A stretch of 64,000 bases of DNA from Eukaryota sp. TZLM1-RC (Eukaryota; Protista; Metamonada: BaSk clade). The stretch is from assembly GCA_040285825.1 (NCBI GenBank), contig JAUPSS010000003.1, positions 620,001-684,000 of the forward strand. Direction: 5' to 3'. Each line of letters begins with the position of its first letter. Position 1 is the first letter of the stretch. The position numbers were made by a program, and so were the translations under genes. This document shows, in pieces, positions 15,291 to 38,359 of the stretch. A model generated the notes under the pieces. That model did no database searches. It was not told the origin of the DNA and worked only from the letters and a program-made list of their open reading frames with translations.

Positions 15291-15344
15291 GAGAAAAACT
15301 GATTCAAAAACGCAGCCAGAGGTGTAGTTAAGATGACAGTGCTC

Positions 15345-15813: not shown

Positions 15814-15837
15814 TTCATTTCATCTCCATATTCCAAA

Positions 15838-15871
15838 TTACTACTATTTGACATCTTTGTGCTACTAGCCG
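15838..15871 (+). promoter_or_regulatory. Conserved 34-nt pre-ATG leader element, copy 1
   Basis: TTACTACTATTTGACATCTTTGTGCTACTAGCCG|ATG; 28/34 identical to 38326-38359 (minus) and 27/34 to 29719-29752, all with the same spacing to ATG. Confidence 0.7.
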
Positions 15872-17110
15872 ATGTCTCTCAATACACCCCTCCATGAGGA
15901 TGACGAGGACGCAATCTGTTGTGATATTTGCTACGAGATGTTTGATGATCAGGACCATTCACCATTCACAATTTGTGAGAATGGACACACTGCATGCATG
16001 TGTTGTGCTCGAAAAGCAGCTCGCTGTTTCATCTGCCGTGAATCTATTTTGGAGAAGCTGATCCCTAATCGTGATGTGCTTAACATTCTCGAGGCAATCA
16101 ACAATAGTGGCCATCAAATCCCATTCATCCCTTATGACGATCTCCATGTTGAAAACACCCCTTTTATGACCGATAACACTGGAGAATTCAGAGAATGTAC
16201 TTGGAAAACAACTAACATGATTCTGAAGGTATACAAGGAATTAACTGAAGCTGGGAAGCTACGTCTCATGCAAGAAATAAAGAGAACACTCAATTTCAAC
16301 TTTCCCAATGTTATACGAGCATTTGGAACCACCACTCTACCATCTGGACAGATCGGCCTCATCATTGAGCATTGTGATGGATCTCTGTCTGATCTTATTC
16401 CCTCCGAAACGTCAGTGGAAAACATCAAATTGGCTCGTCAAGTAGTAGCTGCGGTTGAGTATCTCCACAATGCGAAGATGTGCCATTACAATCTCACCCC
16501 TGGAAAGATTCTATTGTCACACGGTGTTTGTAAGATCGCTGATTTTGGAACTTCGAAGATCATTGAGGAACACACCACTATGCCTTCTACTCAATTCAAT
16601 GAAGCTCTCCGTTATGCCCCCATTGAATTGATGGAAAATCGAAAAGAAGGTCCCAAAACCGATGTCTATAGTGTTGGTATCGTTTTGTTTGAGCTTTTGT
16701 GTGGAAAGCATGCATTTGGCAAGAAAATCCAACTTATGATGAAAGACAAAATGCAGAGTGCTCCCCTTCCTTTTCCCAATGACTGCCATGCCCAGCTACG
16801 GGAAATATTACAACGATGTGCATCAGCTGACCCCCACATGAGGCCACAACTCCACGAAATAGATCAAGTTCTTCATTCAATGCTAGATGTCTCTGTTTCT
16901 GGTGTTGACCGTGAAAAAGAACAGCTGAGGGCCGAAGTACGCACTTTGAGGAATGATATAGAACAATTTAGAACAAATGAAACAAAGCTACGACAGCAAT
17001 TGCTTCAGGAAAAACAGCGTTACACATGTTTAGAACAGCGGTTTAAGGAAAAAATGGACAACTTTGCCTCTCTGAGCCGTAAGTTTGGCAGATTGTGTGA
17101 GGGTCTCTAG
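15872..17110 (+). CDS. RING-finger / TKL-like pseudokinase / coiled-coil protein
   Basis: CDIC...CENGHTACMCC...CFICR RING finger. Kinase fold has DFG, YAPIE and DVYSVG, but HRD is replaced by HYN and there is no GxGxxG. C-terminal coiled coil. Confidence 0.85.
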   Translation: MSLNTPLHEDDEDAICCDICYEMFDDQDHSPFTICENGHTACMCCARKAARCFICRESILEKLIPNRDVLNILEAINNSGHQIPFIPYDDLHVENTPFMTDNTGEFRECTWKTTNMILKVYKELTEAGKLRLMQEIKRTLNFNFPNVIRAFGTTTLPSGQIGLIIEHCDGSLSDLIPSETSVENIKLARQVVAAVEYLHNAKMCHYNLTPGKILLSHGVCKIADFGTSKIIEEHTTMPSTQFNEALRYAPIELMENRKEGPKTDVYSVGIVLFELLCGKHAFGKKIQLMMKDKMQSAPLPFPNDCHAQLREILQRCASADPHMRPQLHEIDQVLHSMLDVSVSGVDREKEQLRAEVRTLRNDIEQFRTNETKLRQQLLQEKQRYTCLEQRFKEKMDNFASLSRKFGRLCEGL

Positions 17111-17596
17111 TTGTTTGTAGTTATAAATAATTTTGAAGTGAAAAATGCTGCAGTTAGACAGTATCTAATTCATAGATTGAATACGTGAATATGACATTTG
17201 TTACTTCTTTGTGTGTGAGTACAGTGTATCGTATTGAAATTTGAATTTTCTTCAAATATCATTCAAAATTTGTAAACTTAAAAATTTCACCTTTTTCAAA
17301 ATCTACGAATTAATTTAATGAAGAATTATTGCATTTATTGAATTTGCACACTTAATTAAATTAACTCATAACTAATGGGACGACTATCATTGAACCAAGA
17401 TTTCCTCTACAAAATCTTGATCTGCTTGCTGTCTAGCTAAAGCTTCTCTTATTCGATTGAAAAACCGTGGTAATCTATTAATAATGGCAAATTGAATCCG
17501 TGAACGCCATAAAAAAATTAATTAATTTGAAAGTAATAAATTAAAAATAAAAAAATAAAAAAACTTTCTTTATCTATTCACACAAGGAACACAACA

Positions 17597-18007
17597 ATGA
17601 ACACGAACTATATATCTCCTCATGACCTTGCAAGTCTTTTTCGTGACAATGCAAACATTATGGTGGTGGATGTACGTTCATATGACTACACTTCAGGCAA
17701 ACTTCCTACCTCAATCAACATTCCTTCTCACCAGTTTGAAGATATAGGGGTTGTAGAAAACCTGACTCACCTTGTTTCAAAAGCTGCACCTGATCTCGTC
17801 GTCTTTCATTGCCACTTGAGTCAAGAACGAGGACCTTTTTGTTATAGAGTGTTTTCAAACACTTTTCGAGCCCTCTATCCACAGAATAAGACAAAGATTT
17901 GTGTTCTCGAAGGAGGATTTAAGAACTATAGAAGATTGTTTTGCGAAGATTCTAAGTTGTATGTTCCATTGGCAGAGACTGTTTCAAACCATGATGTGTC
18001 GGACTGA
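17597..18007 (+). CDS. Cdc25-like/ACR2-type single-domain rhodanese (phosphatase/arsenate reductase)
   Basis: VVDVR, VFHCHLSQERGP (HCx5R) and VLEGGF motifs. Confidence 0.88.
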   Translation: MNTNYISPHDLASLFRDNANIMVVDVRSYDYTSGKLPTSINIPSHQFEDIGVVENLTHLVSKAAPDLVVFHCHLSQERGPFCYRVFSNTFRALYPQNKTKICVLEGGFKNYRRLFCEDSKLYVPLAETVSNHDVSD

Positions 18008-18499
18008 GTTTTAACAAGGACAAAGAGAACTTTGAGGGGTATGTTGCCTACAATTGATCATATTTGGAACAAGAATTGTGGCAAAAGACTCTCCTTTTAT
18101 TTATTGTATTCATTTTTACTCAGTATTTTGTTTTTTGCAATGTAAATTTTTCGTCACAACATAAATGTGTTTGTGTAATAGTTCCAATTAAAGCAGTAAA
18201 TCAAAGTAAATGATATTTCTCCTTTTTTTCTTGTTTGACTTTAAGTCCCTGTGTGCAGTCTCAAGATATACTGAAAAAATATTGTTCATTAGACGTTGAT
18301 AGCTCTAGATTAAAGTCAGGATAATTTTGGTTAATTCTCTATGTTAATCATAGAATACGTTTAAAATGTCACTTAAAATTGGTTAATTACTGCATAATTA
18401 ATCAAGTGTCCAGCAAGGAGACACTTTAAATCCTCTTCTTTTTGTTTAAATATTCACAAAAATTTGGCCATCTCGAAACTTAAATGGGAAAATTGCATC

Positions 18500-19078
18500 A
18501 AACAACCCCATTTACCTTTTCAGAAACAAGCAATTCCCGTTTCCATGTCTTTCAATCCACATTTACCGCAAGGGAGCGTACACTTAGTGCCCTTCTCTAC
18601 CACAATTACCACATCTTCTTGCCTTCTTTCTTCCAACTGCCAAGACCTTCTTTGCCATAAATCGATTCCTTTTCAGCTCTGCATGATTTGATTCAACACG
18701 AGTTGTGGTGTAGCTATTGAAATGAGTGAACTGGTCTGTGTAGCAATGTAAAAATTCAGTTCCAACTGGTAGTAAGCTCTGCTCGATATAATCAACAGCT
18801 TTTTGAATTAACTAGTTGCTCCACAAATCAAGTTCTTGTAAGTGAATAGGAAATCGTTCAATAAAAGTTTCATTGAGGATTAGGTTTCATTGATTAGCAC
18901 AGCAGGAACATCGGAAATACACGGAGACACCAGGTTTATGAGCACATAAGTGAAAAGCAAAGCCTTGCTCATTACTCCATCTTTTCCAATATTCCAAGAG
19001 GGTCTTGAAGGAAGAACTTCTTTGTAGGGGACTGATATCATTCACTCTAGCACTATTGCATTCAGGATGTTGTATCAT
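18500..19078 (-). mobile_element. Internally deleted MULE/Mutator transposase remnant
   Basis: FAR1-like DBD (WSNEQGF...YFRC) at 18887-19078, then YTDQFTHFNSYTTTRVESNHAELK (~18670-18750), matching the MULE TTxRVESxH motif. Confidence 0.7.
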
Positions 19079-19486
19079 GATAAAATTTTAGAAAGTACAA
19101 GTTTAGCAAAAAGTACAAGTTTAGCAAAAATGTTAGTACTAGAATTGAACCAAGACCAAAGATCCTTTATTGAAAAAACACAAGGTGTTGGAACTGTGAA
19201 TGGAATCCAGAAAGTCTTTACTGAAGAAACAAGACATGAAACAGTACCAGAAGAATATGCACAGGACTTTATTGAACAAACGAGAGATCAAGATGAAGGT
19301 GAAGCAGAGACTTTTGCATCAAAAAAGCGTAGTTATCGCTGTGGCAACTGCTTGATGTCAGGTCATAGAGCTCCCCAGTGCCCAAATCCAAGAAAAGACA
19401 CGAAGGAAAAACGAAGATATCGGTGTTCAAAGTGTGGTCCAGAAGGTCATAAAGCAACTAACTGTAGCAGGGATCTGAATCAATAA
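19067..19486 (+). CDS. Small protein or transposase C-terminal remnant with two CCHC zinc knuckles
   Basis: CGNCLMSGHRAPQC and CSKCGPEGHKATNC; sits in a transposon-debris spacer. Confidence 0.5.
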   Translation: MLYHDKILESTSLAKSTSLAKMLVLELNQDQRSFIEKTQGVGTVNGIQKVFTEETRHETVPEEYAQDFIEQTRDQDEGEAETFASKKRSYRCGNCLMSGHRAPQCPNPRKDTKEKRRYRCSKCGPEGHKATNCSRDLNQ

Positions 19487-20059
19487 TAAATCAATTGATT
19501 TTGTGTTAACAAGTGTTTCCGGTTGGTATTTGAAAATGCAAATGCATTTGAGGTTGGATTTTGAAAATTGAAAATGACAGAGGTTTGATTTTGAAAACTG
19601 ATATTGGCAGAGGTTGGATTTTGCAAATGACCCAACTCAAATGCCCAACTCACAAAAGTATTGCACACATGGACGATATTTAACTTGTTCGTCCATTTAA
19701 TTTACCACAAACAGTGGTTTAAGACATTGCTAATTCATATGAAAATATTGAAAAAATTTCATTTTATACCTGACAAATGACTCTCAATTGGTCACTTTTC
19801 ATGTACTTTTGATCAATGTTTCTGTTGTTACACTCACGAACTATAGAGGTGATGCTTTTACACTTAATGGTTGCTACTTATGGAATTCTTCTAAATTCTC
19901 AATTAATAACAAAGTATTTTGGAAAAATGACAATGAACTAGATCCCATTTCCTCTTTAGTTTTTGAAAAGCATATCGAATTTGAATTAAATACACAAATC
20001 TTAATAGTAAGTGCAATTTTATTGTATGTAAAAGTCTCATAGAATTGAATCTTTTTTTG

Positions 20060-20520
20060 AAACATTGTTGTCAAATCTGTTTGATGCTGAGGATGATGTA
20101 ATAAAATGAAAAAAAAGATGTCATATTACCTGGATTCGAAGGATCAACTATTTTAATAGATGTGATGTCTCTTGTTCCTCTATGCTCCTAATGAGAGGTT
20201 TATTACGTATGCAAAGTATAATCCTCATTCCGACGCCAAAAACTTCACAATTGAAAATATATTAAACGTTTATCCAAATTGTCTACCCAATACCATGTAA
20301 ATTACAATTTGTATCCATTTGTATTTTTTTAATTGGTTCACTTGCTCCTATTGCGGCAACTTTTTTGGCAAATTGAAAACTCAATGTGGAAGTTCAGTAA
20401 ATAAAAAAGATGTTAAAACAGAGCCAATAGAACTTTTGACAGATTATTTTGGCAAACTAGAATTGTATTTTCTGCTTTTGAGGGTATGTTGAAGATGGTT
20501 TTTCATGGTTTGCATGTAAT
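20060..20520 (+). mobile_element. Decayed CRE-like REL endonuclease fragment
   Basis: Nucleotide similarity to the reverse complement of 46300-46750 (GATGTCATATTACCTG..., AATTTGTATCCATTTGTATTTT). Confidence 0.7.
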
Positions 20521-21929
20521 TTTCAACTTCACTGTAGCCTTAAGTTGAAGAATTGGAAAAAGGAAAAGTATGAGATAATGTGAATGAGGTAAAGTTGATT
20601 TATTTTGTCCTTATTCTAATTAAGCCTAAAGGCGCCAACATCACAGGGAATGGTGAAATTAATTACTGATTCACTATTTCCCTATGGTTGATTTTCAGAA
20701 TCTTTAGTAATTAACTTCTGTGATGGTGGAGAGGCAGGTTTTCAACTTGTTGAAATTCTGTTGTGATTAAATTTTTGAAGAAGACCAAATTCTTCGCCGG
20801 TGCAGCAAAAGATGCAATGGAGCGACAGTTTTGTTACATACGAACTGTCAGCGTCTTGGCCTGTGGTCTTGCTCAGTATTTTATACTGATGCATTTGAAC
20901 ATGGCCCACTGGTTGTACCATCAACAATTCTAGTATCAATGCCAAGACTTTGTGGTGATGGCCAATCCTCCAGTCCGGCGACCCTTTGAAAACCACCGAA
21001 AGGTCTACAAGGCTCTCTTTTATGCTTCTGACCCAACCAGGTGGCAATTTCCCCCTCTGAGTTGTGATAAAAGGACTGACAACTGATACCATTCTGGCAT
21101 CCGAAGCTTTCGCGCACTCCAAAGGGCGAACAGCTTTTGTCAAATAAAGACAGATGGCCCAGTTGTATGGAAGCTTAACTTCTACAAAACAATGGCAGTC
21201 TTCTTTGACTGTCCAGCTCCGAAAAATATGCTGCTGCGTTTCTTAAAAATTCGGCCGTTTCAGAGCAGGTACTTGGTTGGTATGAGCAACACCATGCTCA
21301 CATAACTGATTTGTTTAAACAACAAGTTGGTGACCCTGCTAGGTTCCAAGCGCTCTTAGAAGAAACTGACATTTAACTGAACGCTGAATCGATGACTTTT
21401 ATCTTCTCCGCCAACCTCCGTATTTTGTCCTTCCTTGAGAGCATGGCGGGTGAAACATTGAAGAGACACGCTCTCGTTTCATCCGCAAGCTACTCACCAA
21501 ATTTATTTTATTCAGTCAACAACTTGAAAAACCCTTCTTGCGTTTAAATCCAAACCGACAACTACTGAAAAACCCATTCAAGTATCTGAGTAGTAGATAG
21601 CTTTTTTCATTATTGCGCACAAAAATTGATCGTATATTTATGGCAATTTGCCTATAAAAATCATTAAAAATATTTTAAAAATCGAACATACAATTCTATT
21701 TTACCAATTTTCAGGAGTGAATATTCTTTCAATTCATACCTTCAGAACTGGAGTGCACAGAAGTCTTCAAGGAATGGCAAGGAATGAAGTATGCTTAACG
21801 TCTATCTAGATTGCATGAATTAATCAAAAGCCAGAAGTGCGTTTTGATAGAAAATCATAGTGATAAAAATCTGTGTAATTTTTTTTAAAAAAAGTTTTTG
21901 ATTTCTTACTTTCAAAAAACTAAACACAA

Positions 21930-23060
21930 AAATTAAAATTCCAAATTTTCATATGCCAAATCTACCAAAAGAATTGACTGGACGTTTTTCCTTCATAAAA
22001 GCGACCAAAAAATAATAAAGCAGAAGACAATAACGATACAACACCTTTGACAATTGAAAATACAATTCTGTTCTGCCAAAACGTTTTGTCAAAAATTCTT
22101 CCTGTACGTTGTTTTACAATTTCAACATAATCATCCAAAAGAGATAAAGCAAGTGGTCCAAGCGTACGATGTAAGGAAAAAGCAAATGGACAAAGGACAT
22201 AATGAGTATGAGATTCAGCATTCAAGGATGCCAACTTTGCTCTATATTTATCAATTTTAGAATTTTCAGCAACAGACAGCGGATTCTTGTGTTTTGACTG
22301 AGCTAATGGTATGAAAGAATTATTACACACATCAGTTGATCTCGGATCAGTGATGATAGTGGTCCCATCAAGTCCTTCAAGCATTAAATCAGCTCTGTTA
22401 CGACCAAGTATTCAAAGTGTCCCCATCAACAAAACGAGAAAGTAATGGTTTCAAATAGGAGACAATTCTGTGAGGCTTAGACATACAATAGAGCTGATCT
22501 CTAACTGCATCATGGACTTTTGATCGAAAAGTAATAAAATGTTTACAGTTTAACAAAAGATTTGGAGAAATTTTTGATCCACATTTGCAAACCAAATTAT
22601 GAGGAACGTTATTGGGCCAAAACAACCATCGAAGGCGCATTGTACAAGAAAATGTGGTATCATCTAAAAGAAGTCCATAAATTTGAGAAATTAAACAAGA
22701 TGAAGAACTATTTTGAGAATCTAACATGAAATTTGCGAAAGCGGGATCTTTTTTGGCCGAGCCAAGACGAACATTAAAATCCAAACCTTCACAAACTATT
22801 AAATTTTGTTGCAATTTTTTAATACTATACCTCAAATTAACTAGTGTTCTAGGTTGTACTTCCTGCATATTATCGGAAAAGCATTTATTTCAAATTTCAG
22901 GAGGCAAACAATCAAAAGCATTTTGCAAGGTCTCTTAAATAATTATTACTTGTAGGATTCAATAAATTAACATCATTAGGAAAACGGTTGCAAAATTCAA
23001 AAACAAAATTGATTGATGGGGTTTGAGTAGAACAAAACCTTAATTAAGGTTTGTTGTTTT
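21930..23060 (-). mobile_element. CRE-like retrotransposon 3' part (CCHC plus restriction-like endonuclease), frameshifted
   Basis: CKCGS...LLNCKHFITFRSKVHDAVRDQL, GLDGTTIITD, KIDKY and PFAFSL...FWQNRIVFSI; A-rich 3' tail near 21930. Confidence 0.85.
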
Positions 23061-23148
23061 GTTTTACAATGTGTCTGTTTCCGGAATAATTTTTCTTCTA
23101 ATTCTGGAATTTGGAATTCCAGCAGTTGGTGTTGGAAATACACTTTAC

Positions 23149-24684
23149 ACAGAATTACGACTAACTTTAATGAATCAATGGAATTGATTGGGGTATTTCG
23201 TAATAGAGGTATTGGGAAAGTTTTAAAATTTTTAAAAATAATGGTTTTGCTAATGTGCAATTCTAGTTTTCAGTATGATCTACCAATGCAAAAATTAAAT
23301 GTCTAATTGCAAAAAAATCTAGTTAGTGCAAATAGCATGAGTTCACAACAATGTGGCAAAATGTCCCAGAACTTGAGAGTACCTCTGGCAACCACAGAGA
23401 AATAGATAAAGAAGCATTGGTGTTTCAAAAAAAGTGAACAGCAAAGTTGCTATCCGTGAATGCTGAATCGCATATTCATTATGTCCTTTGTCCATTTCCT
23501 TTTTTCCTACATGGATCCCTTGGACCACTTGCTCCTATCTTTCTTGGATGATTTTGTTGAAATTGTGAAACAACGTACAGGAAGAATTTTTGTCAAAATG
23601 TTTTGGCAGAACAGAATTGTATTTTCAATTTTTAAAGTTGTTGTCACCTTATTATCTTCTGCTTTATTATCTTTGGTTTTTTCTATGAAGGAAAAACTTC
23701 CAGTCGATTCTTTTTGGTTGATTGGAAGAATGAAGATTTAGAATTTTAAGGTTTGTTGTTTAGTTTCTCGTTGGACTAATTTAAATCAGCCTAAAAAAGA
23801 AAAGGGTGAATTTATGGTTATTTGTACTCAAAACGTACGTTAAAAACCACGAGTGGTCAACATTATGGCAAAAAGGGGGTTGAAATTTGATGTAAAAGGC
23901 CTTTGTTCGTCATCATATATCAAAATGCCTCGTTGTGACATTTCACATGCCATTGACAATAAACAAAAATTAGAAACGTTTATTGAACTGAAACAGACAA
24001 CAGTCATCTTAAAGCCTTTGAAAAGAGCACTGTGTTATTTGTACAACAAAATCATTCTACAAGCAACGTTGGAGTGTCTATATAGCGTGAAAGTTGGTGA
24101 CGTCCAAGGCATAATCAAATTAGTTCAACCGAACATTGATACTATTTTTAGAGTTCTAATATTTCATCAGAGTGTTCATTCAACCGACCTATCATTGGGC
24201 CTCATTCTTTTTACGTTGATTAATTCATCTTTTTGGGTACCAGAGAAAAAGACTGCGAGGTTAATCGTGGCAAAAAGTAATACAAAATTCATGGATGTTA
24301 TATTTTAAGGAATACTTGGAGTGTGTTCAAGCAAAGTGTGTAAACATGCAATTTATAAGGAAGATTCTGCTTCCATTTAAATGGCCCTTCCTTCAGCTTG
24401 GACTGGACTGCTTCGATTAGACATGACAAACATCCCCTTTACAGCAAGCAACTGGTTGTTCACTTTCTCTAATATGCTTTAAGACACTTCTCAGAAATGA
24501 TGCTCAAACTGCTTTGGCCGATTTGTTGTGCGTTGAGGATATTCAGGAAAGCCGATAGTCTTTATTTTTAAAAGTTTTTATTTTCATTACACAGGTGGGA
24601 CAAGTGTATCAACTGCCACACATCTCTACATTTCGTCCCAAGATTATTTTTAACAATGCCTTAAAATAAGATTAAATTCAGATT
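23149..24684 (+). repeat. ~1.5-kb block duplicated in inverted orientation at 48252-49773
   Basis: Near-identical reverse-complement sequence; the ORF pairs 23460/49181, 23853/48797 and 23343/49394 are almost identical. Confidence 0.95.
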
Positions 24685-25573
24685 GAGTTCAGTGAGAAGC
24701 GATAGGTTAAATGAGCAAAGAAGATTTGGGTAAGTGAAGTGATTGTGGGTAGTTTTATATAAATAATTTATCATCTAAGTGCTCTTTTGTAGACAGTGTT
24801 CTGTAAAAATTGTCTCTAAGTAAAACAGTGTTTGAAATCCGTCAATAAGATAATGCACAATAATCCTGCACACGTGTAACACGTGTCCAAACAGAGAGGG
24901 AGAGAAAAAGGGAGAATTGTTGAGATAGCTGAATGGGAAGAGGACAAGAGGTAAAGGAAGAAGAAGGAAACTGGAAAAAACATAAAGTTTAGAGTAACAA
25001 TGACCAATATAGCAAAAGGGTAAATTGAGCTGACGTTGATGACCCTTAATAGAGATACAGTGGATAGGCATTTGATACCAATGTAGAAATTAGCAATCAA
25101 TTTGAAATTGCCAGACATCGTGTCAAACAGCGAGATTATCTTGACTCTTCCCATTCTTCTAACATCATGCAGCAAAAGGAGAACAAGGATAACGAGGTTA
25201 CGGACCCGGTTCCCACCTCCTCTTTCAACCTGTTCTTCACAGAACAGCAGAGTACTTCCTCCCGAACTCCTTAGTCGGAAACAGTCATCCTGCTTTACAG
25301 AAATAAACAGAGGGTCAGAACCTCGATTTCCTATCGGAATCGTTGTTCTGATCCTTCCGTGGGGGGTAGAGTATTGCACTTTTTTCAGTCATCATGTGAG
25401 TCATGATATGGGTGCAGTTGAATCAGCCATGGTGCTAATCACCTTAGATACAGGATGTTTCTTTTGTTTTTGTTTTGTTTTGAATTGTTTTTTTTGTTGT
25501 TTTTGATTTTGTTGTTTTTTGTGGTTTAGGTACTTGCACTTTAGATACGGGATGTTGTGTTTTAAATTGTTGA

Positions 25574-26636
25574 TTTAATAATGTTGAGTTTGATTACTAT
25601 GTTAATAATTTATGTTTTCAATCCAGAACCTGCCAACATCTTTTATCAACATACTCATTTACTGTTGATTTAACAATGGATGGAGATGTTGAAGCAAATC
25701 CAGGTCCCAGAAAGAGAAGATCTAAATTTAAATCAACTCCTCCATCAAAAATTATAAGAAATGCAATTTTTGATCAACAAACATCAGGGCGTAAGCTAAA
25801 AGCACAACAAAAAGCATTGAACCAAGAAATTTGCATTAAGAATACAATGTTGAATATCGAGAACAGGAAGATTTTGACAAAGAAACCATTGAAACCGAGT
25901 ATGGTCAGAAAAATTGGGCCAAGTCGTAGTGGCTTCAAGCCTGATCCATTGATTCAATTCAAATCAATGAACCCAAATCAAATTCTTCCCACTGTTATGT
26001 GCTTCGATCTTGAAATCTATCAGGATGGTCATCTTTACCAAAATCATGATGGCCAATTTCTCAGTCCTGACGAGATTATCAACAAAAAGAGAAAAGAGGG
26101 TGCAAATCTTTTAAAAAAAACTGATGAGCAAATGGGTGAATGGATTTCAGATCAACAAGTGTTTTTAATTTCACTTGTTATTGGTAAGTTTGATCGCCAT
26201 AATTTCTTTTTGGAGAGTAAATATTCACTTATATTGAGAATTAGTCCTCAAATCAGATTACCTGACATTGATATGGATATTCAGGCAGAAATTTTCTCTG
26301 ACGAAAAACCTTGCTTCATAGGTTCTTAAACCTTATTGGTACTCATCAACCTCATTGTTTTCTTAATCACAATTTAATGCAGTTTGATTTGCAGGTTTTA
26401 AAAAATAGATTAAATTATTTTGATTTACCATTTTTTACTGTTCGAGATGATACAGCAATTGATGTACTCAATCAACTATCACCGAGATGGAGAGAAGTTG
26501 TTATCAGGGAAAATGGCTTTTTTCTTTTTATGGTTTTTGCCAAAAAATTTATTAAAATACCCTACGGACATGGATTAGGCAATCTGGCATATAAAATGAT
26601 AAATGAAAAGAAAATCAAACTTCATCAGGAATTTTC
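25574..26636 (+). pseudogene. 2A/StopGo motif followed by a family-B DNA polymerase 3'-5' exonuclease domain (frameshifted)
   Basis: Frame open from 25574: ...SFTVDLTMDGDVEANPGP, then VMCFDLE (ExoI), FSDEK/LLHRFLNLIGTHQPHCFLNHNLMQFDLQVLKNR (ExoII) and GLGNLAYKMINEKK. Confidence 0.75.
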
Positions 26637-27555
26637 CCATATAAAAATCCTCAAATATTCCTAAAACTAACAATTACAATTGCCCAATAGATCTCCAGTA
26701 GAGAGAAAAAACCTTATCATATTTCTCCTGCTTCAACCACTGTAGGCCCTGGATATTTTCCTATTGATACAAGAACAATATGGACAATTATTAGACAAAC
26801 ATTGATGGACGATTTGTTGCCTGATCAGAGATTAAAAATGTCCAATACACTAGCCCAAATTACGAAATTCAAACCACCTCAGCAATTTGACTTTTGGTCT
26901 AATATTCTCGATTTAAACCAAGAAAACAAAAGGTTTATAAATTCAACAACATTATTCACACAGATGGATTTAATATTGCAGTAGAATTTGTTTGTCGGGA
27001 TTTACAAGGTCAGAAATGTAAGCCAGACAACAAGGCCAGTATTTCTGATTTATATATTCATGATGTTGATGTTGATGCTTTTCAAGACAAACGAATTGTT
27101 GTTTGTGATCCTGGAAAACGTGATTTATTGTATTTTGGGAGTAAAAAGACTGATCAAGAACTAGCCATGGTGCCTGAACATGAAACTGAACAGCAAAGAA
27201 ATAGTCGGGTGATGAATCAAGACAAGAAGTACAAATGGTTGAGAATGACTCAGATGTCCTGGTCTTTGAAAAGTAGGATGAATGTAAAAACGATGGGCGA
27301 CAAAGTATATTGAGGTGTATTACGACGGGAACCAAATGACAGAGTCTAACGAAATGACAATTGGAAATGCAAACACCGAATCATCCGCGTTTGCTGCCAA
27401 TTCAGCAACTTTTATATATTTTTCCAACTTTGTGGTTGCCAAACTTCGGCAAGTTTTTTTGACAATTGACTTTCACAGTCTTGATTTGTGGAGCATTCAT
27501 AAAATGCAAGCTTTTCTTCACAAGTAAAAGTTTGAAAGTTGGTTGTTAAAAACCT
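26637..27555 (+). mobile_element. Fanzor remnant, family D (REC/WED, RuvC-I, bridge-helix region)
   Basis: KNPQIFLKL...KPYHISPASTTVGPGYFPIDT, FNNIIHTDGFNIAVEF, IVVCDPGKRDLLYFG (RuvC-I) and LWSIHKMQAFLHK*KFESW; truncated before RuvC-II. Confidence 0.8.
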
Positions 27556-27617
27556 TTTTTATTCATACTTTGCTTTATATCTGCGTAATTCACTTCAATA
27601 TCTTCATCCAACAAGTT

Positions 27618-27641
27618 TCTACTACCATTTGCTAATAACCG
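27618..27641 (+). promoter_or_regulatory. Shorter variant of the conserved pre-ATG leader
   Basis: TACTACCATTTGCTAATAACCG|ATG keeps both end motifs with the middle deleted. Confidence 0.45.
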
Positions 27642-29279: not shown

Positions 29280-29718
29280 GTTTTTTAGGGTTTTCTTTCT
29301 AGTTTTACATTTTGGTTTCAGGACCTTTTTTGACCAATATTTTTTATTTATACACTTATTTATTTATACTTGTTTTGTCCACATTTTCTCCTGAGTCATC
29401 AATCCTGTTTTTGCAAAGCAAATAGTCGCGTTGGGAATTGGATGAACATAGTGCTTTGTTTTGAAACAACGGTAGTAGTGCTTAAATGAATTGAAATAAA
29501 TACAACTAAAATTCCTTGAAATTTTTACAAACAATGAATGTGACAATATAGCTTAAAAGCAGTTTATTCAATGTACATCTATCGAAATAGTAGACTCCCA
29601 TTGATTTTCTCTCTTAACAGTCTAATGTGTTAAATATGTTGGTTCTGGGTTTCAAGTGGCTTTCACTTTCCTCATTCTAAAATAATTATAATAATAATCC
29701 TTCATTTATCTCACCAAA

Positions 29719-29752
29719 TTACTGCAATTTTGCGTTTTTGTGCTACTAGCAG
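29719..29752 (+). promoter_or_regulatory. Conserved 34-nt pre-ATG leader element, copy 2
   Basis: TTACTGCAATTTTGCGTTTTTGTGCTACTAGCAG|ATG. Confidence 0.7.
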
Positions 29753-31270
29753 ATGCAGACATTAGTTTTCCCTCCCTCAACACGATCTGTCTCACTCAAA
29801 GTGATTCTACATGTCTGTCTTTTAGCAATCACTATCTTTCAAATCAATATTCCTGTCCAAACATCTGTTAATTATCTTGCTGATGCGTCCAACACTCTCT
29901 ATGAGTACTTCATTCCTGAAGATTTTCAAGAAGATGAACCCATTAAAGAAAGAATCTACTACCTTTCATCAATAGAAGAAGTAAAATCCATTCTTGACCA
30001 CACAGTTGACGTTGTCTCCCGTCTTACCTCGTCATCCCTCTCTGTCTGGCACAGTATTCAATCTCCCATGCTTTCCTTTACAGCATTTCCCGGTACTGGA
30101 TGGGTAATATACCCAGATACCAAGTACCCTCAACTTCCATCAATTCTCAACAATAATCATAATCTGACCAACGTTGACTGGTCAGATGAACTTCTTTTGT
30201 CATGCCTTCAAGCATGTCAGTACGCTATAATTGAGACGACTGTTGATCATTCCGAGATTGTTAGCTCAGGTGCATTACTGAATAAGTGGAAGATTAAGCA
30301 ACAGCTTGAGTTAATCAAAGGAAGTGGTTTGATTTCATTGACAGTCAATTATGATCGCTTCTTTGATGGAAACAAGTTCAATCAGTCTACAAGAATCCTA
30401 TTGACCAGGTATTTACTTGATTCCTTGGCAGTCATTTTGTCTTTTGTTTTAACTTTTGTTTTGATAGTTCAATCAAGACTCTTTTTCCAAACGTTTTCAA
30501 TTGAATTAAATCGCCTTAAAAGATTTAAAAAGTTGGATATCGATTCCCAGGCACTTGTCAACCAATCATCACCTCTAGTTAAACTCAATTCATCCAATTC
30601 CGGAAAATCTGGTTTTTTGTCAGAGTTTTTTTCTTTTTGGACTGTTATTCTGCTTTTAGGAGCCTTTTTCACAACAATTGGTTCATTATTGGATTTATTT
30701 TCCCTAAGCATTTCCAAATACAATTTCAATAACATTCGTTTTCTTCAAGGTCTAGGTGCCTTTTTGACCTCAATTCATGCATGTCGGTACTTTGAATCAA
30801 ACTCAAACCTTTACCTGATCATTACGTCAGTAAAAAGAGCTTTTCCTCAAGCATCTCTTTGGTTTTTCTCAGTTTTGCCAATCTTTCTTGGTTACTCTCT
30901 TTTAGGGTACTCTCTTTTCAAACCCCTTTCTCCTTTTCTTTTTGGGACGGTAGGACAGTCTTCAGTGACTTTGTTTGCTGCTTTGAATGGTGATGCTGTT
31001 GCTGAGTTTTTTGACGCTGTATACTCAAGTTACCCTGTTTTTAGTCGACTTTTCTTTTACACCTTTATCTCATTATCAACTTATTGTGTTTTGAATGTTT
31101 TCAGAGTAATTATTGAACATGCTTACCATTCAACAGAACTTTCTGAAGAAGCTTCTGGTTATGAGTTGGTTGAAAAACCCATCCCAATTCCAATAGAGGA
31201 GATTAAACAAGTGCTGAGTAGTAGATTTGGGGAGATTAATAACCAAGTTGTGAGTAGGTTAAAAAAATAA
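29753..31270 (+). CDS. Mucolipin (TRPML)/polycystin-type cation channel
   Basis: TM1, a large luminal loop and 5 further TMs; pore region TLFAALNGD and RLFFYTFISL...LNVF. Confidence 0.85.
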   Translation: MQTLVFPPSTRSVSLKVILHVCLLAITIFQINIPVQTSVNYLADASNTLYEYFIPEDFQEDEPIKERIYYLSSIEEVKSILDHTVDVVSRLTSSSLSVWHSIQSPMLSFTAFPGTGWVIYPDTKYPQLPSILNNNHNLTNVDWSDELLLSCLQACQYAIIETTVDHSEIVSSGALLNKWKIKQQLELIKGSGLISLTVNYDRFFDGNKFNQSTRILLTRYLLDSLAVILSFVLTFVLIVQSRLFFQTFSIELNRLKRFKKLDIDSQALVNQSSPLVKLNSSNSGKSGFLSEFFSFWTVILLLGAFFTTIGSLLDLFSLSISKYNFNNIRFLQGLGAFLTSIHACRYFESNSNLYLIITSVKRAFPQASLWFFSVLPIFLGYSLLGYSLFKPLSPFLFGTVGQSSVTLFAALNGDAVAEFFDAVYSSYPVFSRLFFYTFISLSTYCVLNVFRVIIEHAYHSTELSEEASGYELVEKPIPIPIEEIKQVLSSRFGEINNQVVSRLKK

Positions 31271-31379
31271 GAGAGAGGGGTATTTTATAGTTTTATTAAA
31301 TTATTTATTTATTATTTTTATTAAATTATTTATTATTTTTATTAAATTATTTATTTATTATTTTTAATAAATTATTTTG

Positions 31380-32313
31380 TTAGTTTAGCATTATAAATTG
31401 TTCCAATGACTTTTGGAAATTATTATTTTCAGAAACAGTTGACTTTACCTCAATTGAAACTGAAGATTTTTTAAGAACTGTTCCGAAACTACAGAAGAAG
31501 ATTATTACTTATTTAGAAGCTGAATCACTGAACAATCAATAGCTTGGCTAACAACTCCGGTGATTCCTCTTTGAAATTATTTTTGTCTTCTTTGTGTAAT
31601 TTAAATTTTTCCACAATAGTTCATCTTGCTTGATAACTCAAGTTGCTCGCCCTTTTGGATTACTGCTTTCGGATATTCAATTTTTGACAGTTATGCGAAT
31701 TAAACTTAGTCTACCTCCTCCTCAATATCTATCAAATATGAAATGTAAATGTGGTGCTTATGGTTCTTTTAATCACCTTATCTCCTGCTGTAAATTCACT
31801 CAAAAAAGATCAATTATCCACAATGCTGTTCGTGATTGTATTTACGATTTGCTAAAATGTGCTCATCACACAGTCCGTTTAGAACCACTGTTTGATGAAT
31901 TAAATTTCAGTTTGAGCCAAAAACGAGGTGACATTCAATGTGCTTGTTATGATGGAACTGAACTAATTATCGATTGTAGTACCGTATCTCTATGGAAAAG
32001 AAGATCCAATTCTGACATTCAACATTTACTTAAAGTTGCAGAACATTCCAAGAAATCAAGAAATGAAGCCCTTCTTCAACTTCTCAATCGAACAACAGGT
32101 AGAAACATCAGATTTGTTCCAATTGCTATATCAATTTTTGGTACCATTGGAAATGAAGGTCTTCATTTTTTAGATGATTTAGAAAAACTTCTCAAAGAAA
32201 GTGGTCGCACATTTGATTTTCTGATTTGGAAGAACAGAATCATATTTTCGTTATTTAAAGCTCTTTCTCATTATATTAACTCCATTTTGAATAACATTAC
32301 GGAGTTTTTATAA
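31380..32313 (+). mobile_element. CRE-like retrotransposon 3' part (divergent family), REL endonuclease
   Basis: CKCG...HLISC...HNAVRD, KRGDI, IIDC and FVPIAISIFG...WKNRIIFS. Confidence 0.8.
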
Positions 32314-32511
32314 CAATCGAGTTGCTATACAAGTGAATAGCGAAAATCTCCCGTCATTCAGTGGATGGGGTTTGTAGTAGAAAAAAGTATTAGTGAAAGT
32401 TTTTGGATGAGTTTTAGAACGTGTCTGTTCCAGGAATAAATTCTCTTAATATTCTCAAGTGAATTAGATAATTTAATTTAGTTAATTTTTAATTTTTAAT
32501 TTACTGTTTTA

Positions 32512-33654
32512 TTAGGTTTTGATTAATTTGAATAATTCAGTTGCTATATTGGACTTTGACCAAATGAACCTACTATTAGAATTTAAACTAGATCCACAAC
32601 TTCTGTTTTTAAACTGTTTCAATTTCCTGAAAAAAACCACACTAGAAAAAGAATTCAACTCAGTTGGTAAAGGTACCTTGAGTCCAGGTTGTCGATAAAG
32701 GTTCATTTGGTCAATAAAATTGATTATGAATTCATCAAACCCATCTACAACTTCCTCGAAATCAGACTTAGCAAAGGGGGTAACTAAAGAGATAACGGAA
32801 ATACGCAAAACAATTATCGCAACTGAAAGACAAGTTCCGTGACAATTCAATAAATGCAAACATTTTTGTGAAAGTTTGGCAAATTTTTTGATAATAGAAA
32901 CTCGATTTCTAATTGAAGAACGTTCAATAAAACATCGTATTAAGGAAGAAATAAAAGAAATTAAAAACACAAAAGCTGGTCTTCGTATAATAGTCATTAC
33001 ATCTGATTGCGTGGTGGAATATAGTAAATAAATACCTTCAAAATCGCAACGTGCAAGAACTGAATTAGAGATGAAAAATGATTGGGAAATTGGTGTAGAC
33101 CAGCAAGAAAGGCAACTATAAAAATAGTCAAAGTGTTGAAAATCAGACCGATTCTGTGTGAAAAGCTCAAAACTATTGTCAATGACAAAAGAATTCAATA
33201 AAACTGACAGTCGGGAAAAACTATTGATGTGTGCAAGACTACTGGGCGAGACGAGTGTCTTGCAAAATGTTATCAAATCTGATGGTAAAGCCGAATCAAT
33301 CCATTGAGAGGGGTAAGAATTTGATGAGTCAGATGGATTCGAATCAGTTGACGGAAGATTACGGATACCATGAAACGTCAGAAACCCCATGGTAATAGAT
33401 AATAGATTAGTGGAAGAAACAGAATCACTTGTTGAATTGGATGAATTCATTGCTCGCTTAGGAACCTGTGGATAAAGAGTATAGGGCAAGGCAACTGTGT
33501 CTTTAATGTGCTTTGCTGGTATCTTGCGATTGGAATGAATAGATGGAATTGATGAGGAGCTGTGTTTGCAATCATGGAATGCCTTTGTCATTTCAGGGTT
33601 GGGTTTTATATTCAACGCCTCCAAAAACATTAGGGTGTCCGAGGGAGCATCCAT
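32512..33654 (-). CDS. Hypothetical protein with degenerate RasGEF (CDC25)-like C-terminal region
   Basis: RVSIIKKFAKLSQKCLHLLNCHG resembles the RasGEF R-x2-I-x2-F-x6-C-x2-L-x-N motif; start taken at the first ATG. Confidence 0.45.
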   Translation of the reverse strand: MDAPSDTLMFLEALNIKPNPEMTKAFHDCKHSSSSIPSIHSNRKIPAKHIKDTVALPYTLYPQVPKRAMNSSNSTSDSVSSTNLLSITMGFLTFHGIRNLPSTDSNPSDSSNSYPSQWIDSALPSDLITFCKTLVSPSSLAHINSFSRLSVLLNSFVIDNSFELFTQNRSDFQHFDYFYSCLSCWSTPISQSFFISNSVLARCDFEGIYLLYSTTQSDVMTIIRRPAFVFLISFISSLIRCFIERSSIRNRVSIIKKFAKLSQKCLHLLNCHGTCLSVAIIVLRISVISLVTPFAKSDFEEVVDGFDEFIINFIDQMNLYRQPGLKVPLPTELNSFSSVVFFRKLKQFKNRSCGSSLNSNSRFIWSKSNIATELFKLIKT

Positions 33655-33959
33655 GTAGAAAAGTAAAAATTGAAAACAAAACACAAATGTCTGGTATGTT
33701 TATTTGAATTAAAGCAAATGTTGAAACAAACAGGCCACGCATAGGCTCTGTAATAGGCAGAGATACATAAAAAGGAAATAATACGTACGAATATGACTCG
33801 TTGAATGTACACAATTTCTAAATTCTAGTGTCAGTGAACACAAAAACGTTGACAACAGGTTACAATAAAGGAAAAGATGTCAAATGAGAATGTATCCAAT
33901 AAATATGGCGTTGAAGAGCATTGAAATGAAAAAAGTTCCTTTTCCCTTTACCTACAACA

Positions 33960-34392
33960 ATGGTTCAAGCTATAACCAAACCCACCATTGTCAAGAAGAA
34001 GACCAACAAATTCGTTCGCTTCCAGTCTGATCGATTCCATCGTGTCAAGGTTTGTTCTTCTTACATTTATCCAATTTCAGCCTAGCTGGCGCAAGCCCCG
34101 TGGTATTGACAGTCGTATCAGAAGAAGGTTCAAGGGTGTCACTGTCATGCCTTCCATAGGTTTCGGATCTAACAAAAAGACCAGATTTATGCATAAGGAC
34201 GGTTTCTTCCGTGTTGTTATTCAAAACATGGCTGACCTCGAAGCTCTTACTATGAACAACAGACGCTTTGCCGCTACCATTGCTCATGGTGTGTCCAAGA
34301 AGAACCGCAAGGAACTTGTTGCTCGTGCTAAGGCTCTCAACATTAATGTTACTAACGCTGAAGCCCGTCTCCGTCTCGAAGAAACTGCTTAA
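33960..34392 (+). CDS. RPL32: 60S ribosomal protein L32 (eL32), two exons 33960-34049 and 34081-34392
   Basis: [30 protein letters not shown] joined to [19 protein letters not shown] by a 31-nt GT..AG intron (34050-34080). Confidence 0.96.
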
Positions 34393-35721
34393 GTGTTATT
34401 TAGTCTGTGAAGATTTACATCCTTAATCCTGTTTCGATCCATTCAATAAATATTGTCAGGGTATTTTTGTCACAACAACCATGTTCTTTTTATCAACATG
34501 GAGATTCATAATACCAACATTAAGATGTTTTGGTTGTAGAATTGAAAAAGTTTTTCCTTTACTAGCAATATAATAAACTAGGAATATAGGAATGTTATCT
34601 TAAATCATACTTTGATTTACCTTATCCATTGTTGTGATGGTCCTCTCAATTAGGTTAGTTAAATCAAACATTTATGGAAATGTCAGTAGTAATGATCTGT
34701 GCCTACAACAGAAGGAGTTTCATTACGAAACAAAATGTACAAACTAAAGAAATTCTGAAACAAAATAAACAATCTAAAATTCTGAAACAAAATAAACACA
34801 AGAAGTTGCTTGTAATACTGTATTAAATTCTTCCTTGACCAAGTATAATATGATGACCACAATTTTTATCAATTTGATCGTTACGAAGACTCTTGCTGTT
34901 GTAAGATGTATGTTGTTTGATGGTGTCGAAGTTTGTTTTGAAGATTTTGATTTCTAGATTGTATTTTTGAAAATAAATTAAACCAGTATTAAAAATATTG
35001 CATCATATAGTTTTCTCAAAACGTCAACCCTTTATTTTATCACGCTTTGAAAGCGTTTATGTTTACTGGGTTGTTCTACAATGATAACGTAATATTCATG
35101 ACATGATGCAGTAAGAGATTAAATTTTCATTAAAACAAAAGATACAAGAACCTCGTGAGTCGCAGAGCGTTTACTAAAAAAACCACCGTCATTCAATGAC
35201 GAGGTGGAACAAACATCAGTCCAAAGTACATTTTACACACTGAACCTGTTGAAGCAGCTCAAACACACCACCTGCACAAATTTATAAACCAAATTTTCAT
35301 CAAAAATGAACAAGTAATAATCTAGAAGAAAATTGGTTTTAAATTATATCATTCAATGACACGAATTTTCAAAATCAGACCAACAGCTTATTGTTTCATT
35401 AAGGAAAACATTGCCCCATATCCATAATTAAATTCTATTTTACTTTAACTTTTTGTGTGTTTTTACTCGTCATTTTGTCGTTCAACTGCTGTCAATAGAG
35501 TCCGAGGGGCGAGAAATCATTGGCAAGAAAAATGAAATGGGATCTGATTGCGATGTGCAAATGATATGCCAATGTTTATCACCCTGTTAATCCTTTAATA
35601 CTGACCTTAAGGGATGTGGTGTCAAAACTTGTACCAAACTAAATCTATCAATAATACTTACTTTTTTCAAGGAATCAAATAACCACACAACGAAAAATCA
35701 TTTATTGCAAAGCAACAACTA

Positions 35722-38325
35722 CTAACCAGACAATCTCTGCTTTATACTTTTATGCAACAAAGTCAAAAAGTCCAGATAAGAAATACTAGAACTACTCAAC
35801 TTTGTTTCAACAAGATACTCGTAAAAATCGCGTTGCTCGACAGATTCGTGCCTCACGACCCTGATAGAGTTGATTAAAGACTCCAATCCAAGCTCTGAAG
35901 TAACCAATTTTTTGACAACCAAGGCTTCAAACGAATCATTCTTCAGTTGAGTGGAATTGTTTTCAATTTCAAATAGCGAATTAAACATTTGAAGATCAAC
36001 ATCTTTCCCAACAAAAATAATTGGCTCTTCACTTAAAACCACATAGACTCCTGTAGTCTTGACAAATTCAGATGAAAGACGAAGATATGAAGGTGGGAGT
36101 TCCAAAGGAGTAGAGATGAATTCATCAACATTGTAACTATAAATAGAAACAAGTCTCTGAACTTCTTCCTTTTCCAGGTAATCAGAGATGCAAACCATTT
36201 GAGGGTGGATCAACTTTAGACAATCTGAAACACTAGAGACTAAGGAACTAAACATCAAACAAGCCCTTCTATCCGAATGACAAGGCTCTAGCCTTAACAA
36301 AGGACTCTTCAACAGAGATAAAACCAAAACTGGGAGCAACCTAAACTTTTCAGGTAAAACTAACTGAGTATCATGAGTAGGGCCTTGTGACTGACGGACA
36401 GAAGACCGATAAGTGGCTAATAATGAAACGACACGTTTTATAATGTCTTCTCTGAGGTCAGGAATCTTAGCTCCATCAGTTGAAATGCTATTGGCCACTG
36501 ATTTTACCAATAAAGACATTATACACTCAATGTCAACTTCCTTAAACATTTCTGCAAGGTTATTCTTGATAGGAATCGCCGAGTTGATCACTCTAATAAT
36601 ACGCTCTCCACGTGAGGAGGTAAACAATACCGCAACTTGAGAATAAAAATAAGGGCCGTTCAATTCAGTGGAATAGTTCATTGGAATCAACACACCAAAG
36701 TTATTGCTTACAGAAATGACAGGAATGGAAACTAACTGCTTCTGACCTTGGAAGAGATGACCTAATATAGTGTAATCAACATTCTGACCAATACGGACCC
36801 TGAGCACAGATTCCCAGGCATTTATCTTGCACAACGAATCCTTTACACCTCTAGAGAGCAACTCAAACGCGGAGGGGCCACCAACCATTGGTCTAACTCC
36901 AACTACAGAGCCTCCAGTAATCTTTGATAATGAACCAATGGAGGCGACATCGATGTATTCACTACAATCAATGAACGAGTCTATGGTGATTTGCCTTCTA
37001 CAGCATTGGACAGCAACATCCTTAATTACTGGCGACCCTACCTTTAAGAGTTCGTGTATGTGAGAAGGAGCAACAGAGTGAACGTTTTCGTATTTGCGTT
37101 CTCTGTGTTCAAGGGAAAAGCTTCCAAGATCAGGACGTTGTGCCGCAAATAGTAAAATTCTTCCTCCATTGAATCCTATAATAGAAGCTCCTGCCACAAC
37201 TGCCGACCCTAAACAGTTCGATTTAATATTATTTTTGTTGTGTAATTCCTCGGAAAGAGAGGGAATATAATCCAAAAGTCCTTCAATAGCACCGTAGTTT
37301 GCCCTTAAATTGACAACCAACCCTTCTGCAGAGGGGATAAACATGTCCTCCACATCAGGCACAACAAACTCTTGGGCCTTATCATTAAAAAACTTAAAGA
37401 ATCGAAGTTTTGTATCAAACACAAGAAACCCAACCAACGTCCTTTCATCACCAGAAATGCACTGTAAGGAGCTTCTAATGGTATCACAAACAGCCTTAAC
37501 AAACCCTGACTGGTGGGCGTTGGTAGACACATCAATAAGGAAGTAATAACAAGGGGCTTGTGGAGGCCTCATTGTGTACTCTGAGGGAGCAGAAAAGTCG
37601 ACAACAGAATTGGTTAATTCTTGGAGGGAATTGTTAGAGGAGAGCCTATAGATAAACGACTCGTCTGTTTCACAAGATTTCTTACATATATTACAAACAA
37701 ACCTTCTGCCGCCGTCGTGAAACTCAAAGTACGGATTAACATATGTTCTACAATAAGAACAACGAAGAGGACCAGCTTCACCCAAATTGACTCTTTCCAC
37801 ACTGATAGATGGGTCTTTGAGGTCAGGGAAGGGGGAAACAACGAATCCACAAGGGAAGGTCCACTTGGAAGCAATGGAAGGAGAAGAGGGGAGGCAAGAC
37901 ACAGCATGACGGATGAAGGAAGGAGGGGCAGGGGGAACAGGAAGAGTAGCTGATGTAGGGGTGAATGATGGAGGGGTGGTGGAAGGAACAGTTGCAGGAG
38001 ATACTGTTGAGGGAGATGGAGTGACTGTGGATGGAGTTGGGACATTTGGTGGGAGAGGAGAAGACTGTACAGGGTGAGAAGAGCGAGAATGTTGCCGAGG
38101 AGGGGGTGGAAGGGAAGAACTAGGTGGTTGGGATTTCTGAGAACGGGGTGGGGGAGGAACAGTGGATACTGGGTGATGGGAAGCAGTAGTAGGGGGTTGA
38201 GGTTGCTCATCAGTTTCTTGCTGATGAGGAGGTTTAACGGAGAGAGAAGCGAATGCTGTAGGAGGCAAGTCAACATGCCCCATAACGGCACGCTGGGGAT
38301 GATGATAACTTCCCTTTTCGGACAT
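35722..38325 (-). CDS. SEC24: COPII coat protein Sec24
   Basis: Pro-rich N-terminus, RCSYCRTYVNPY...CNIC zinc finger, trunk vWA YYFLIDVS and GERIIRVIN. Confidence 0.95.
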   Translation of the reverse strand: MSEKGSYHHPQRAVMGHVDLPPTAFASLSVKPPHQQETDEQPQPPTTASHHPVSTVPPPPRSQKSQPPSSSLPPPPRQHSRSSHPVQSSPLPPNVPTPSTVTPSPSTVSPATVPSTTPPSFTPTSATLPVPPAPPSFIRHAVSCLPSSPSIASKWTFPCGFVVSPFPDLKDPSISVERVNLGEAGPLRCSYCRTYVNPYFEFHDGGRRFVCNICKKSCETDESFIYRLSSNNSLQELTNSVVDFSAPSEYTMRPPQAPCYYFLIDVSTNAHQSGFVKAVCDTIRSSLQCISGDERTLVGFLVFDTKLRFFKFFNDKAQEFVVPDVEDMFIPSAEGLVVNLRANYGAIEGLLDYIPSLSEELHNKNNIKSNCLGSAVVAGASIIGFNGGRILLFAAQRPDLGSFSLEHRERKYENVHSVAPSHIHELLKVGSPVIKDVAVQCCRRQITIDSFIDCSEYIDVASIGSLSKITGGSVVGVRPMVGGPSAFELLSRGVKDSLCKINAWESVLRVRIGQNVDYTILGHLFQGQKQLVSIPVISVSNNFGVLIPMNYSTELNGPYFYSQVAVLFTSSRGERIIRVINSAIPIKNNLAEMFKEVDIECIMSLLVKSVANSISTDGAKIPDLREDIIKRVVSLLATYRSSVRQSQGPTHDTQLVLPEKFRLLPVLVLSLLKSPLLRLEPCHSDRRACLMFSSLVSSVSDCLKLIHPQMVCISDYLEKEEVQRLVSIYSYNVDEFISTPLELPPSYLRLSSEFVKTTGVYVVLSEEPIIFVGKDVDLQMFNSLFEIENNSTQLKNDSFEALVVKKLVTSELGLESLINSIRVVRHESVEQRDFYEYLVETKLSSSSISYLDFLTLLHKSIKQRLSG

Positions 38326-38359
38326 CAGCTAATAGCACACTAATGTCAAACAGTAGTAA
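38326..38359 (-). promoter_or_regulatory. Conserved 34-nt pre-ATG leader element, copy 3
   Basis: Minus strand TTACTACTGTTTGACATTAGTGTGCTATTAGCTG|ATG. Confidence 0.7.

Follow-up and report, generated by a model that had tools for sequence, protein, structure and literature searches.

To our knowledge, structured RNA elements common to many unrelated messenger RNAs (mRNAs) are rare in eukaryotes. A covarying stem together with a fixed tail, bulge and top is characteristic of an RNA hairpin read by a protein; in the replicase operator of phage MS2, the AUG is held in a hairpin whose bulge and small loop are presented to a protein. The iron-responsive element (IRE) is a hairpin of ~30 nt in the 5' untranslated region (UTR), and atypical IRE-like hairpins have been described in Trichomonas vaginalis (PMC4693282). 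Other short sequences at the 5' ends of genes include flatworm spliced leaders, which end in ATG (PMC12582326), and the short, 5'-biased introns of related fornicates, which carry one conserved block at the 5' end and another in which branch and 3' sites are fused, and one of which lies in a 5' UTR (PMC6679479, PMC10711314). Here we analyze a 64,000-nt stretch of DNA (contig JAUPSS010000003.1, positions 620,001 to 684,000; denoted the window), in which a short repeat unit directly abuts the start codons of four genes. We tentatively read the unit, with a probability of roughly 0.4, as an mRNA hairpin that hides the start codon and whose fixed tail, bulge and loop are read by a trans-acting factor.

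A repeat unit directly in front of start codons

A preliminary description of this DNA reported three ungapped 34-nt leaders with zero spacing to the ATG of unrelated genes, and the coordinates confirm it: the copies begin at 15838 (+), 29719 (+) and 38359 (-), and each abuts an ATG. The reported identity of 27-28/34 between copy 1 and the other two was reproduced upon recomputation (27/34 with copy 2, 28/34 with copy 3); copies 2 and 3 are identical at 24/34 positions. The next-best match in the window to any of the three copies reaches 22/34, and 3,000,000 random window draws compared with copy 1 yielded a maximum of 21 outside the three copies. In a profile scan of the window the copies scored 46-49, which is high by construction, and all other sites at most 9.4; a covariance model run over the 64 kb revealed no further significant site (best other E 0.49). 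Because a purine directly precedes every copy, the unit length is best given as 35 nt. It is built from a 5' box (RTTACTRC), a T-run, a pairing arm, TGT, a TGCTA-N-TAGC box and a terminal C-N-G (Table 1).

The shorter variant noted earlier in front of 27642 is a real fourth copy of 27 nt, which has the 5' box and TGCTA-N-TA-R-CCG in common with the full units. Of the weak variant proposed in front of 55787, a look-alike of the 3' box is present, but it does not rise above background in the profile or covariance-model scans of the window. Exact matches to the pattern TGCTAHTARCNGATG in the window are the four unit-bearing starts only. The 5' box has 28 matches in the window, and a 3' box lies 16-24 nt away only in the four units; one further match has a similar 3' box at a distance of 47 nt, and the match at 60077 falls within a broken BED-finger-like frame (labelled by eye). 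All four units abut an ATG, and over the 64 kb none was found inside coding sequence or away from an ATG.

Searches for the unit in Rfam (E up to 1), in a tRNA scan, in prokaryote genomes and, with the tight pattern, in viral sequences gave no match. A loose pattern matched five viral sites, three of which are one sequence; these precede ORFs (open reading frames) of 30-42 codons, offer 1-4 of the 6 helix pairs and were taken as chance. The same judgement was made for two matches in a metagenome pattern scan, both inside long open frames, with ORFs of 2 and 6 codons from the ATG.

Complementarity of the unit to each gene's own start

In each of the three full copies, positions -22 to -17 of the leader pair with positions -1 to +5 of the gene they precede, forming a 6-bp helix in one register. 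Copies 1 and 3 start ATGTC and copy 2 starts ATGCA, and the arm of copy 2 differs exactly at the two facing positions, where G-C is replaced by U-A and A-U by G-C. Two further arm positions vary only between Watson-Crick and G-U pairs. At a seventh position, copy 2 has U-A and copy 3 has A-U, and in copy 1 the pair is broken, so that over seven positions three pairs show changes on both sides. Twenty of the 21 cells pair over these positions (95%), compared with 29-52% in slid registers. Within the 6-bp core, 3/18 cells are non-Watson-Crick, and all three are G-U on the mRNA strand. The arm of copy 2 pairs fully with just two of 35 other gene starts. An AUG-containing stem with covariation support, as in a leader hairpin that occludes the start codon, is predicted in the three full copies.

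Chance expectations were derived from 20,000 trials each, counting any common helix of at least 6 bp in any register. When other real gene starts (35 controls, 15 from the window and 20 from relatives) were placed behind the three leaders, such a helix arose in 38/20,000 trials; permutation of leader columns -26 to -15 yielded 152/20,000, and random gene triples 8/20,000. This gene-specific complementarity speaks against two readings: a spliced-leader relic that is neutral and constant, and a promoter acting in DNA only.

The predicted fold has a lower stem between -22 to -16 and -2 to +5, above it either an open loop or a bulge that contains UGU and carries a weak GCU-ANU-AGC top, and a single-stranded 5' tail, RUUACURC. 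The stem alone contributes -7 to -10 kcal/mol, and the invariant inner 3-bp GCU-AGC stem adds ~1 kcal/mol. The sense hairpin is predicted to be stronger than its antisense counterpart in copy 2 (-8.8 versus -4.8) and copy 3 (-10.0 versus -3.9), and about equal to it in copy 1. The leader of copy 2 folds best with its own start (-9.8 versus -5.6).

According to the hairpin reading, the unit would fold within the mRNA leader and hide the AUG, and its fixed parts would be presented to one putative RNA-binding factor that sets the translation of all unit-bearing genes; one binding protein could thereby switch many genes together. Because the stem alone is weak, keeping the hairpin closed, or opening it, would likely take a bound protein, as is the case for IREs. 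A small mobile or intron-derived unit was likely the single source, copied into start codons that for the most part read ATGTC; thereafter selection may have kept the copies while arm and coding start changed together.

Several observations weigh against this reading. The full copies number only three, and the double changes rest on copy 2 and on one pair that is broken in copy 1, because copies 1 and 3 both start ATGTC. The covariation score was reached by 18/500 shuffles, and the nulls are post hoc because folding found the helix first. The inner stem lacks covariation support because it never varies. Folding z-scores of the units against shuffles are ordinary (-1.4 to +0.5), and the leader of copy 3 folds better with the start of copy 2 (-12.8) than with its own (-10.0). 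AUG pairing of at least 0.96 is also seen in three of 35 control genes, and with the unit removed it is still high for copies 1 (0.79) and 2 (0.95). Copy 4 keeps the boxes but is predicted to form no such stem. Finally, the four unit-bearing genes have no obvious pathway in common.

Table 1. Unit copies, pairing arms and adjoining genes in the window
Feature	Coordinates	Strand	Evidence or remark
Unit copy 1 (35 nt)	15837..15871	+	sequence, identity, covariance model
Unit copy 2 (35 nt)	29718..29752	+	sequence, identity, covariance model
Unit copy 3 (35 nt)	38326..38360	-	sequence, identity, covariance model
Short copy 4 (27 nt)	27615..27641	+	keeps 5' box, CAT, TGCTA-A-TAAC-CG; no predicted leader stem
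Weak look-alike of 3' box, before RNase PH gene	55775..55786	+	membership in unit set not established
Copy 1 arm (-22 to -17)	15850..15855	+	complementary to 15871-15876 (-1 to +5, covers ATG), 6/6 Watson-Crick
Copy 2 arm	29731..29736	+	complementary to 29752-29757; two pairs double-changed relative to copies 1 and 3; two G-U
Copy 3 arm	38342..38347	-	complementary to 38326-38321; predicted stem reaches 9 bp
Protein kinase, weak N-terminal RING-like match, 412 aa	15872..17110	+	Pfam
GKRP/MurQ-like SIS-domain protein, 545 aa	27642..29279	+	Pfam; relative's N-terminus matches start
Predicted channel-like membrane protein, 505 aa	29753..31270	+	homologs carry PF08016 and PF00520
SEC24, 867 aa	35722..38325	-	start codon orthologous to two relatives' starts without unit

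Probable placement in the leader and competing explanations

The surroundings of the unit were compared with 34 control starts, 14 from the window (the doubtful ORFs 19067 and 25676 dropped, eL32 added) and 20 from relatives. In the controls, the last 20-30 nt before the ATG are poor in G and rich in C; in the four unit-bearing genes, this signature is found immediately 5' of the unit. Over 30 nt, C minus G amounts to 2, -2, -3 and 5 with the unit in place and to 7, 7, 4 and 7 with the unit removed, the control median being 4. A positional score shifted likewise in three of the four genes, yet stayed within the control spread. Because ordinary pre-ATG composition lies just upstream, we infer that the unit is slotted between the normal leader and the ATG, and is transcribed. 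C-R-R precedes all four units but only 3/34 controls, and three of the four host genes start ATGTC compared with 4/34 controls. An upstream ORF that would terminate at -6, where there is an in-frame stop, was considered and dropped: by eye, copies 1 and 2 have no in-frame ATG near the unit.

This placement bears on the proposal that the element acts at the DNA level, as a core promoter in which the palindrome GCTA-N-TAGC binds a dimeric factor, TTACT serves as initiator and leaders are very short. Its fixed position, the variable centre of the palindrome, as expected of a dimer site, and the retention of the boxes without the stem in copy 4 would all suit a promoter. Such a promoter leaves the start-tracking arm and the one-strand G-U bias unexplained, however, and ordinary pre-ATG composition is displaced to a position upstream of the unit; moreover, the DNA hairpin energies are weak (-1.8 to -3.9). 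We consider it quite improbable. The preliminary description had coupled a promoter or initiator with a translation element in one option; the translational half fits best, through the pairing of arm and start that its reader had not seen.

The closest named homologs of SEC24, the gene behind copy 3, are from Eukaryota sp. TZLM3-RCL (53%) and GEM-RC1 (49%), other eukaryotes being at about 30%. By their names these two are skoliomonads, of the BaSk metamonad clade (PMC11316075). The comparison points to a skoliomonad-like metamonad, likely a free-living anaerobic protist, as the host. None of the 20 called gene starts at the two relatives' SEC24 loci carries the unit, both SEC24 orthologs included (a further gene, truncated at the locus end, was not counted), and the best hit of the covariance model there has an E of 1.1. 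The unit therefore looks lineage-specific and placed before an ancestral ATG. Gene order around SEC24 is not kept; its neighbours differ between the window and both relatives. The earlier characterization of the genome as intron-poor is only partly right: eL32 (33960-34392, +), which has no leader unit, holds a frame-verified 31-nt GT-AG intron at 34050-34080, and gene-model lengths point to introns of about 28-43 nt in 6/20 called genes at the relatives' loci.

These comparisons also bear on a relict spliced leader that ends in its own AUG, in the style of flatworms, and was fixed through cDNA. The unit has a leader-like length and a sharp 5' end, an AUG-ending leader would explain the zero spacing, and reverse transcriptase remnants lie nearby. 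A GTAAY donor has RTTAC, from the 5' box, as its reverse complement, which is presumably what a first hairpin containing the donor would require. About 4/18 host-like starts carry the unit, close to the 22-23% of Symbiodinium genes with spliced-leader relics (PMC5585692). A constant leader cannot, however, track each gene's first coding bases, which weakens the relict interpretation put forward in the preliminary description, as do the native-looking leader directly upstream and the lack of any poly(A) remnant or donor-like copy in the window. Specifically, no A-run of at least 6 occurs within 300 nt after the stop in three of the four genes (SEC24 has one run of 6), and no copy followed by GT and an Sm site, the layout of a donor gene, or by GT alone is present in the window or at the two relatives' SEC24 loci, nor does the unit match an Rfam family. 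The SEC24 start is ancestral, and because the relatives' SEC24 genes are also intronless, the absence of introns is no sign of retroposition. The relics of dinoflagellates, furthermore, scatter over 500 bp upstream (PMC5585692). Marks of a retrogene were not found, although old copies could have lost them. A relict spliced leader appears to us as improbable as a promoter.

The third option raised earlier, insertion exactly at start codons, may describe the origin of the unit, given its slotted look, but not its upkeep. In a rival explanation, the unit would be the footprint of a tiny mobile element, similar to introners (PMC9860276) or to miniature inverted-repeat transposable elements, inserted at C-R-R/ATG and without present role, and the complementarity would be a leftover inverted repeat. 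Sharp unit ends, the lineage-specific occurrence described above and the abundance of repeats in the window are in keeping with such a footprint, as is the preference for ATGTC starts; a loose C-N-R-R-T repeat occurs at both unit ends, and the C-R-R before all four units can be read as a loose duplication of a C-N-G-A-T target. Neutral insertions should, however, survive in intergenic or repeat DNA, where no copy was found, and no clear terminal inverted repeats were seen in the units. In addition, the arm of copy 2 fits its different start, and wherever pairing departs from Watson-Crick it is G-U on a single strand; both observations point to selection acting on RNA. We judge a functionless footprint improbable. 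Of footprint, spliced leader and promoter, each accounts for some of the pattern and none for the gene-matched arm.

The strongest rival to the hairpin reading is an atypical short intron of the 5' UTR, or a substrate that undergoes just the first step of splicing. Removal of the unit would restore an ordinary C-rich, G-poor leader and free the AUG, whereas the retained stem would hide both the AUG and the 3' junction. The unit lengths of 35 and 27 nt fit the ordinary introns here (seven introns of 28-41 nt, one frame-verified in the window and six inferred from gene-model lengths), and all four units begin R-T and end C-N-G. With -7 bulged, TGCTA-N-T (-12 to -6) pairs at 6/6 positions, in 4/4 units, with what we take to be the branch-recognition hexamer of U2, a match found in 0.6% of 7-mers and at 1/34 control starts; because the four units have common ancestry, however, 4/4 does not amount to four independent tests. 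An A occupies -7 in five of the seven ordinary introns, but the branch position is an A in only one of the four units. None of the units is GT-AG (their ends are AT-CG, AT-AG, GT-TG and GT-CG), a GT-AG reading (32 nt, ending at -4) exists for copy 3 only, and the single verified intron of the window has GT-AG ends and another 5' site. No unit copy lies within coding sequence. A brute-force search of the window for introns was too noisy for use.

The positions most needed by the spliceosome, +1, -7 and -2, vary between the units while their neighbours are fixed. This is the reverse of a working intron, yet it would suit a substrate for the first step only; in fungal telomerase RNA, an A at +1 and altered branch/3' nucleotides block step two (PMC4299874). 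We regard the intron explanation as unlikely, albeit deserving serious weight. A broader variant would be a new class of short leader introns, or a family of trans-spliced leaders matched to their genes. Each unit would hold an internal guide that pairs with the beginning of the coding sequence behind it, access to the start codon would be coupled to removal of the unit, GT-AG ends would not be required and, in one metamonad lineage, perhaps a fifth of all genes would carry the unit at their start codon; this we find rather improbable.

Genes, window surroundings and comparison with known systems

Of the labels first given to the genes behind the unit, SEC24 is confirmed. For the gene named RING kinase, the kinase is confirmed but the RING match is under the Pfam cut-off. 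The label mucolipin is plausible in view of the two Pfam families of its homologs (Table 1), which we take to be channel families, but the protein itself has no Pfam match. The starts of SEC24 and of the GKRP-like protein align with the N-termini of relatives; the channel-like protein has about ten extra residues compared with its relatives. After a skoliomonad ortholog, the named matches listed for the GKRP/MurQ-like protein are almost all bacterial or labelled as etherases, at 32-38% identity, and a transfer of this gene from bacteria is possible.

Elsewhere in the window, a 725-bp repeat (93% identical) occurs at 6072-6789 and 38598-39319. Its first copy stops at the start codon of ORF 6072-5092 (minus), and a hairpin is predicted to enclose this start; its second copy lies about 270 nt upstream of SEC24. 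An inverted pair of repeats resembling long terminal repeats, with a short-period tandem array, is located at 41855-42939 and 60837-61725, the latter adjoining integrase-domain ORFs at 61848-64000. A 1.5-kb inverted duplicate (98% identical; 23146-24684 and 48252-49776) lies beside reverse transcriptase fragments (46880-48271). A chain of broken frames at 25574-27527 (+), in which 26302-26661 matches a DNA polymerase B exonuclease, is possibly a decayed Polinton-like or viral insert, and GTTCA/TGAAC-type repeat arrays at 59730-60350, which flank the broken BED-finger-like frame at 59978 (labelled by eye), likely represent a DNA transposon remnant. On the minus strand at 14265-15578, three open frames of the same phase are split by single stop codons and have no Pfam match.

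If the density of 4/18 host-like starts holds, hundreds of copies or more are to be expected in the genome. An element that spreads to start codons and refits its stem to the coding start of each gene would, if this is true, show the fast build-up of a translational regulon, or of a new intron type, in one lineage. Among the papers listed in literature searches on skoliomonads, metamonad spliced leaders, introners and AUG-sequestering stems, none on such an element was found; one paper on skoliomonads (PMC11316075) contains neither 'leader' nor 'spliceosom', and 'intron' once.

The likeness of the unit to short leaders found on many unrelated genes as diverged copies, such as the dinoflagellate relics (PMC5585692) or the AUG-ending leaders of flatworms (PMC12582326), ends at the gene-matched middle, the native-looking leader upstream and the absence of donor or retrogene marks in the window. 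With diplomonad introns, including the 5' UTR intron of Spironucleus vortens Rps15, it has in common a length of ~35 nt, conserved 5' and 3' blocks, an RCTA-type branch-like box near the 3' end and a 5'-biased position (PMC6679479); unlike in these introns, GT-AG ends are found in none of the units, the base at the branch position is mostly other than A, and the middle is paired with the coding start downstream, not internally. Non-GT-AG ends, a purine in first position and an implication of RNA structure recall the nonconventional introns of euglenids (PMC3935182), whose ends pair (+4,+5 with -7,-6), a pairing that fails in 4/4 units. By eye, the units do not fit the consensus of an IRE1-type loop, a bulge-helix-bulge, a hammerhead core, Helitron ends or a U12-type 5' site.

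The unit would work like a protein-read hairpin. As in the system of IREs and iron regulatory proteins, a small, weak hairpin near the start is common to unrelated mRNAs, with fixed letters in bulge and loop and a variable stem; the likeness extends to the predicted control of translation. Unlike IREs, the four units have no CAGUGN or UAGUAN loop, no Rfam match and no single-C bulge under a 5-bp upper stem, whereas a fixed 5' tail belongs to the unit and the 3' strand of the stem is formed, in every full copy, by the AUG and the first coding bases. The MS2 operator also holds its start codon in the hairpin, but the present unit occurs on several unrelated nuclear genes of a eukaryote and has no known binding protein. 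What is new here is a variable middle that is complementary, in one register, to each gene's own start.

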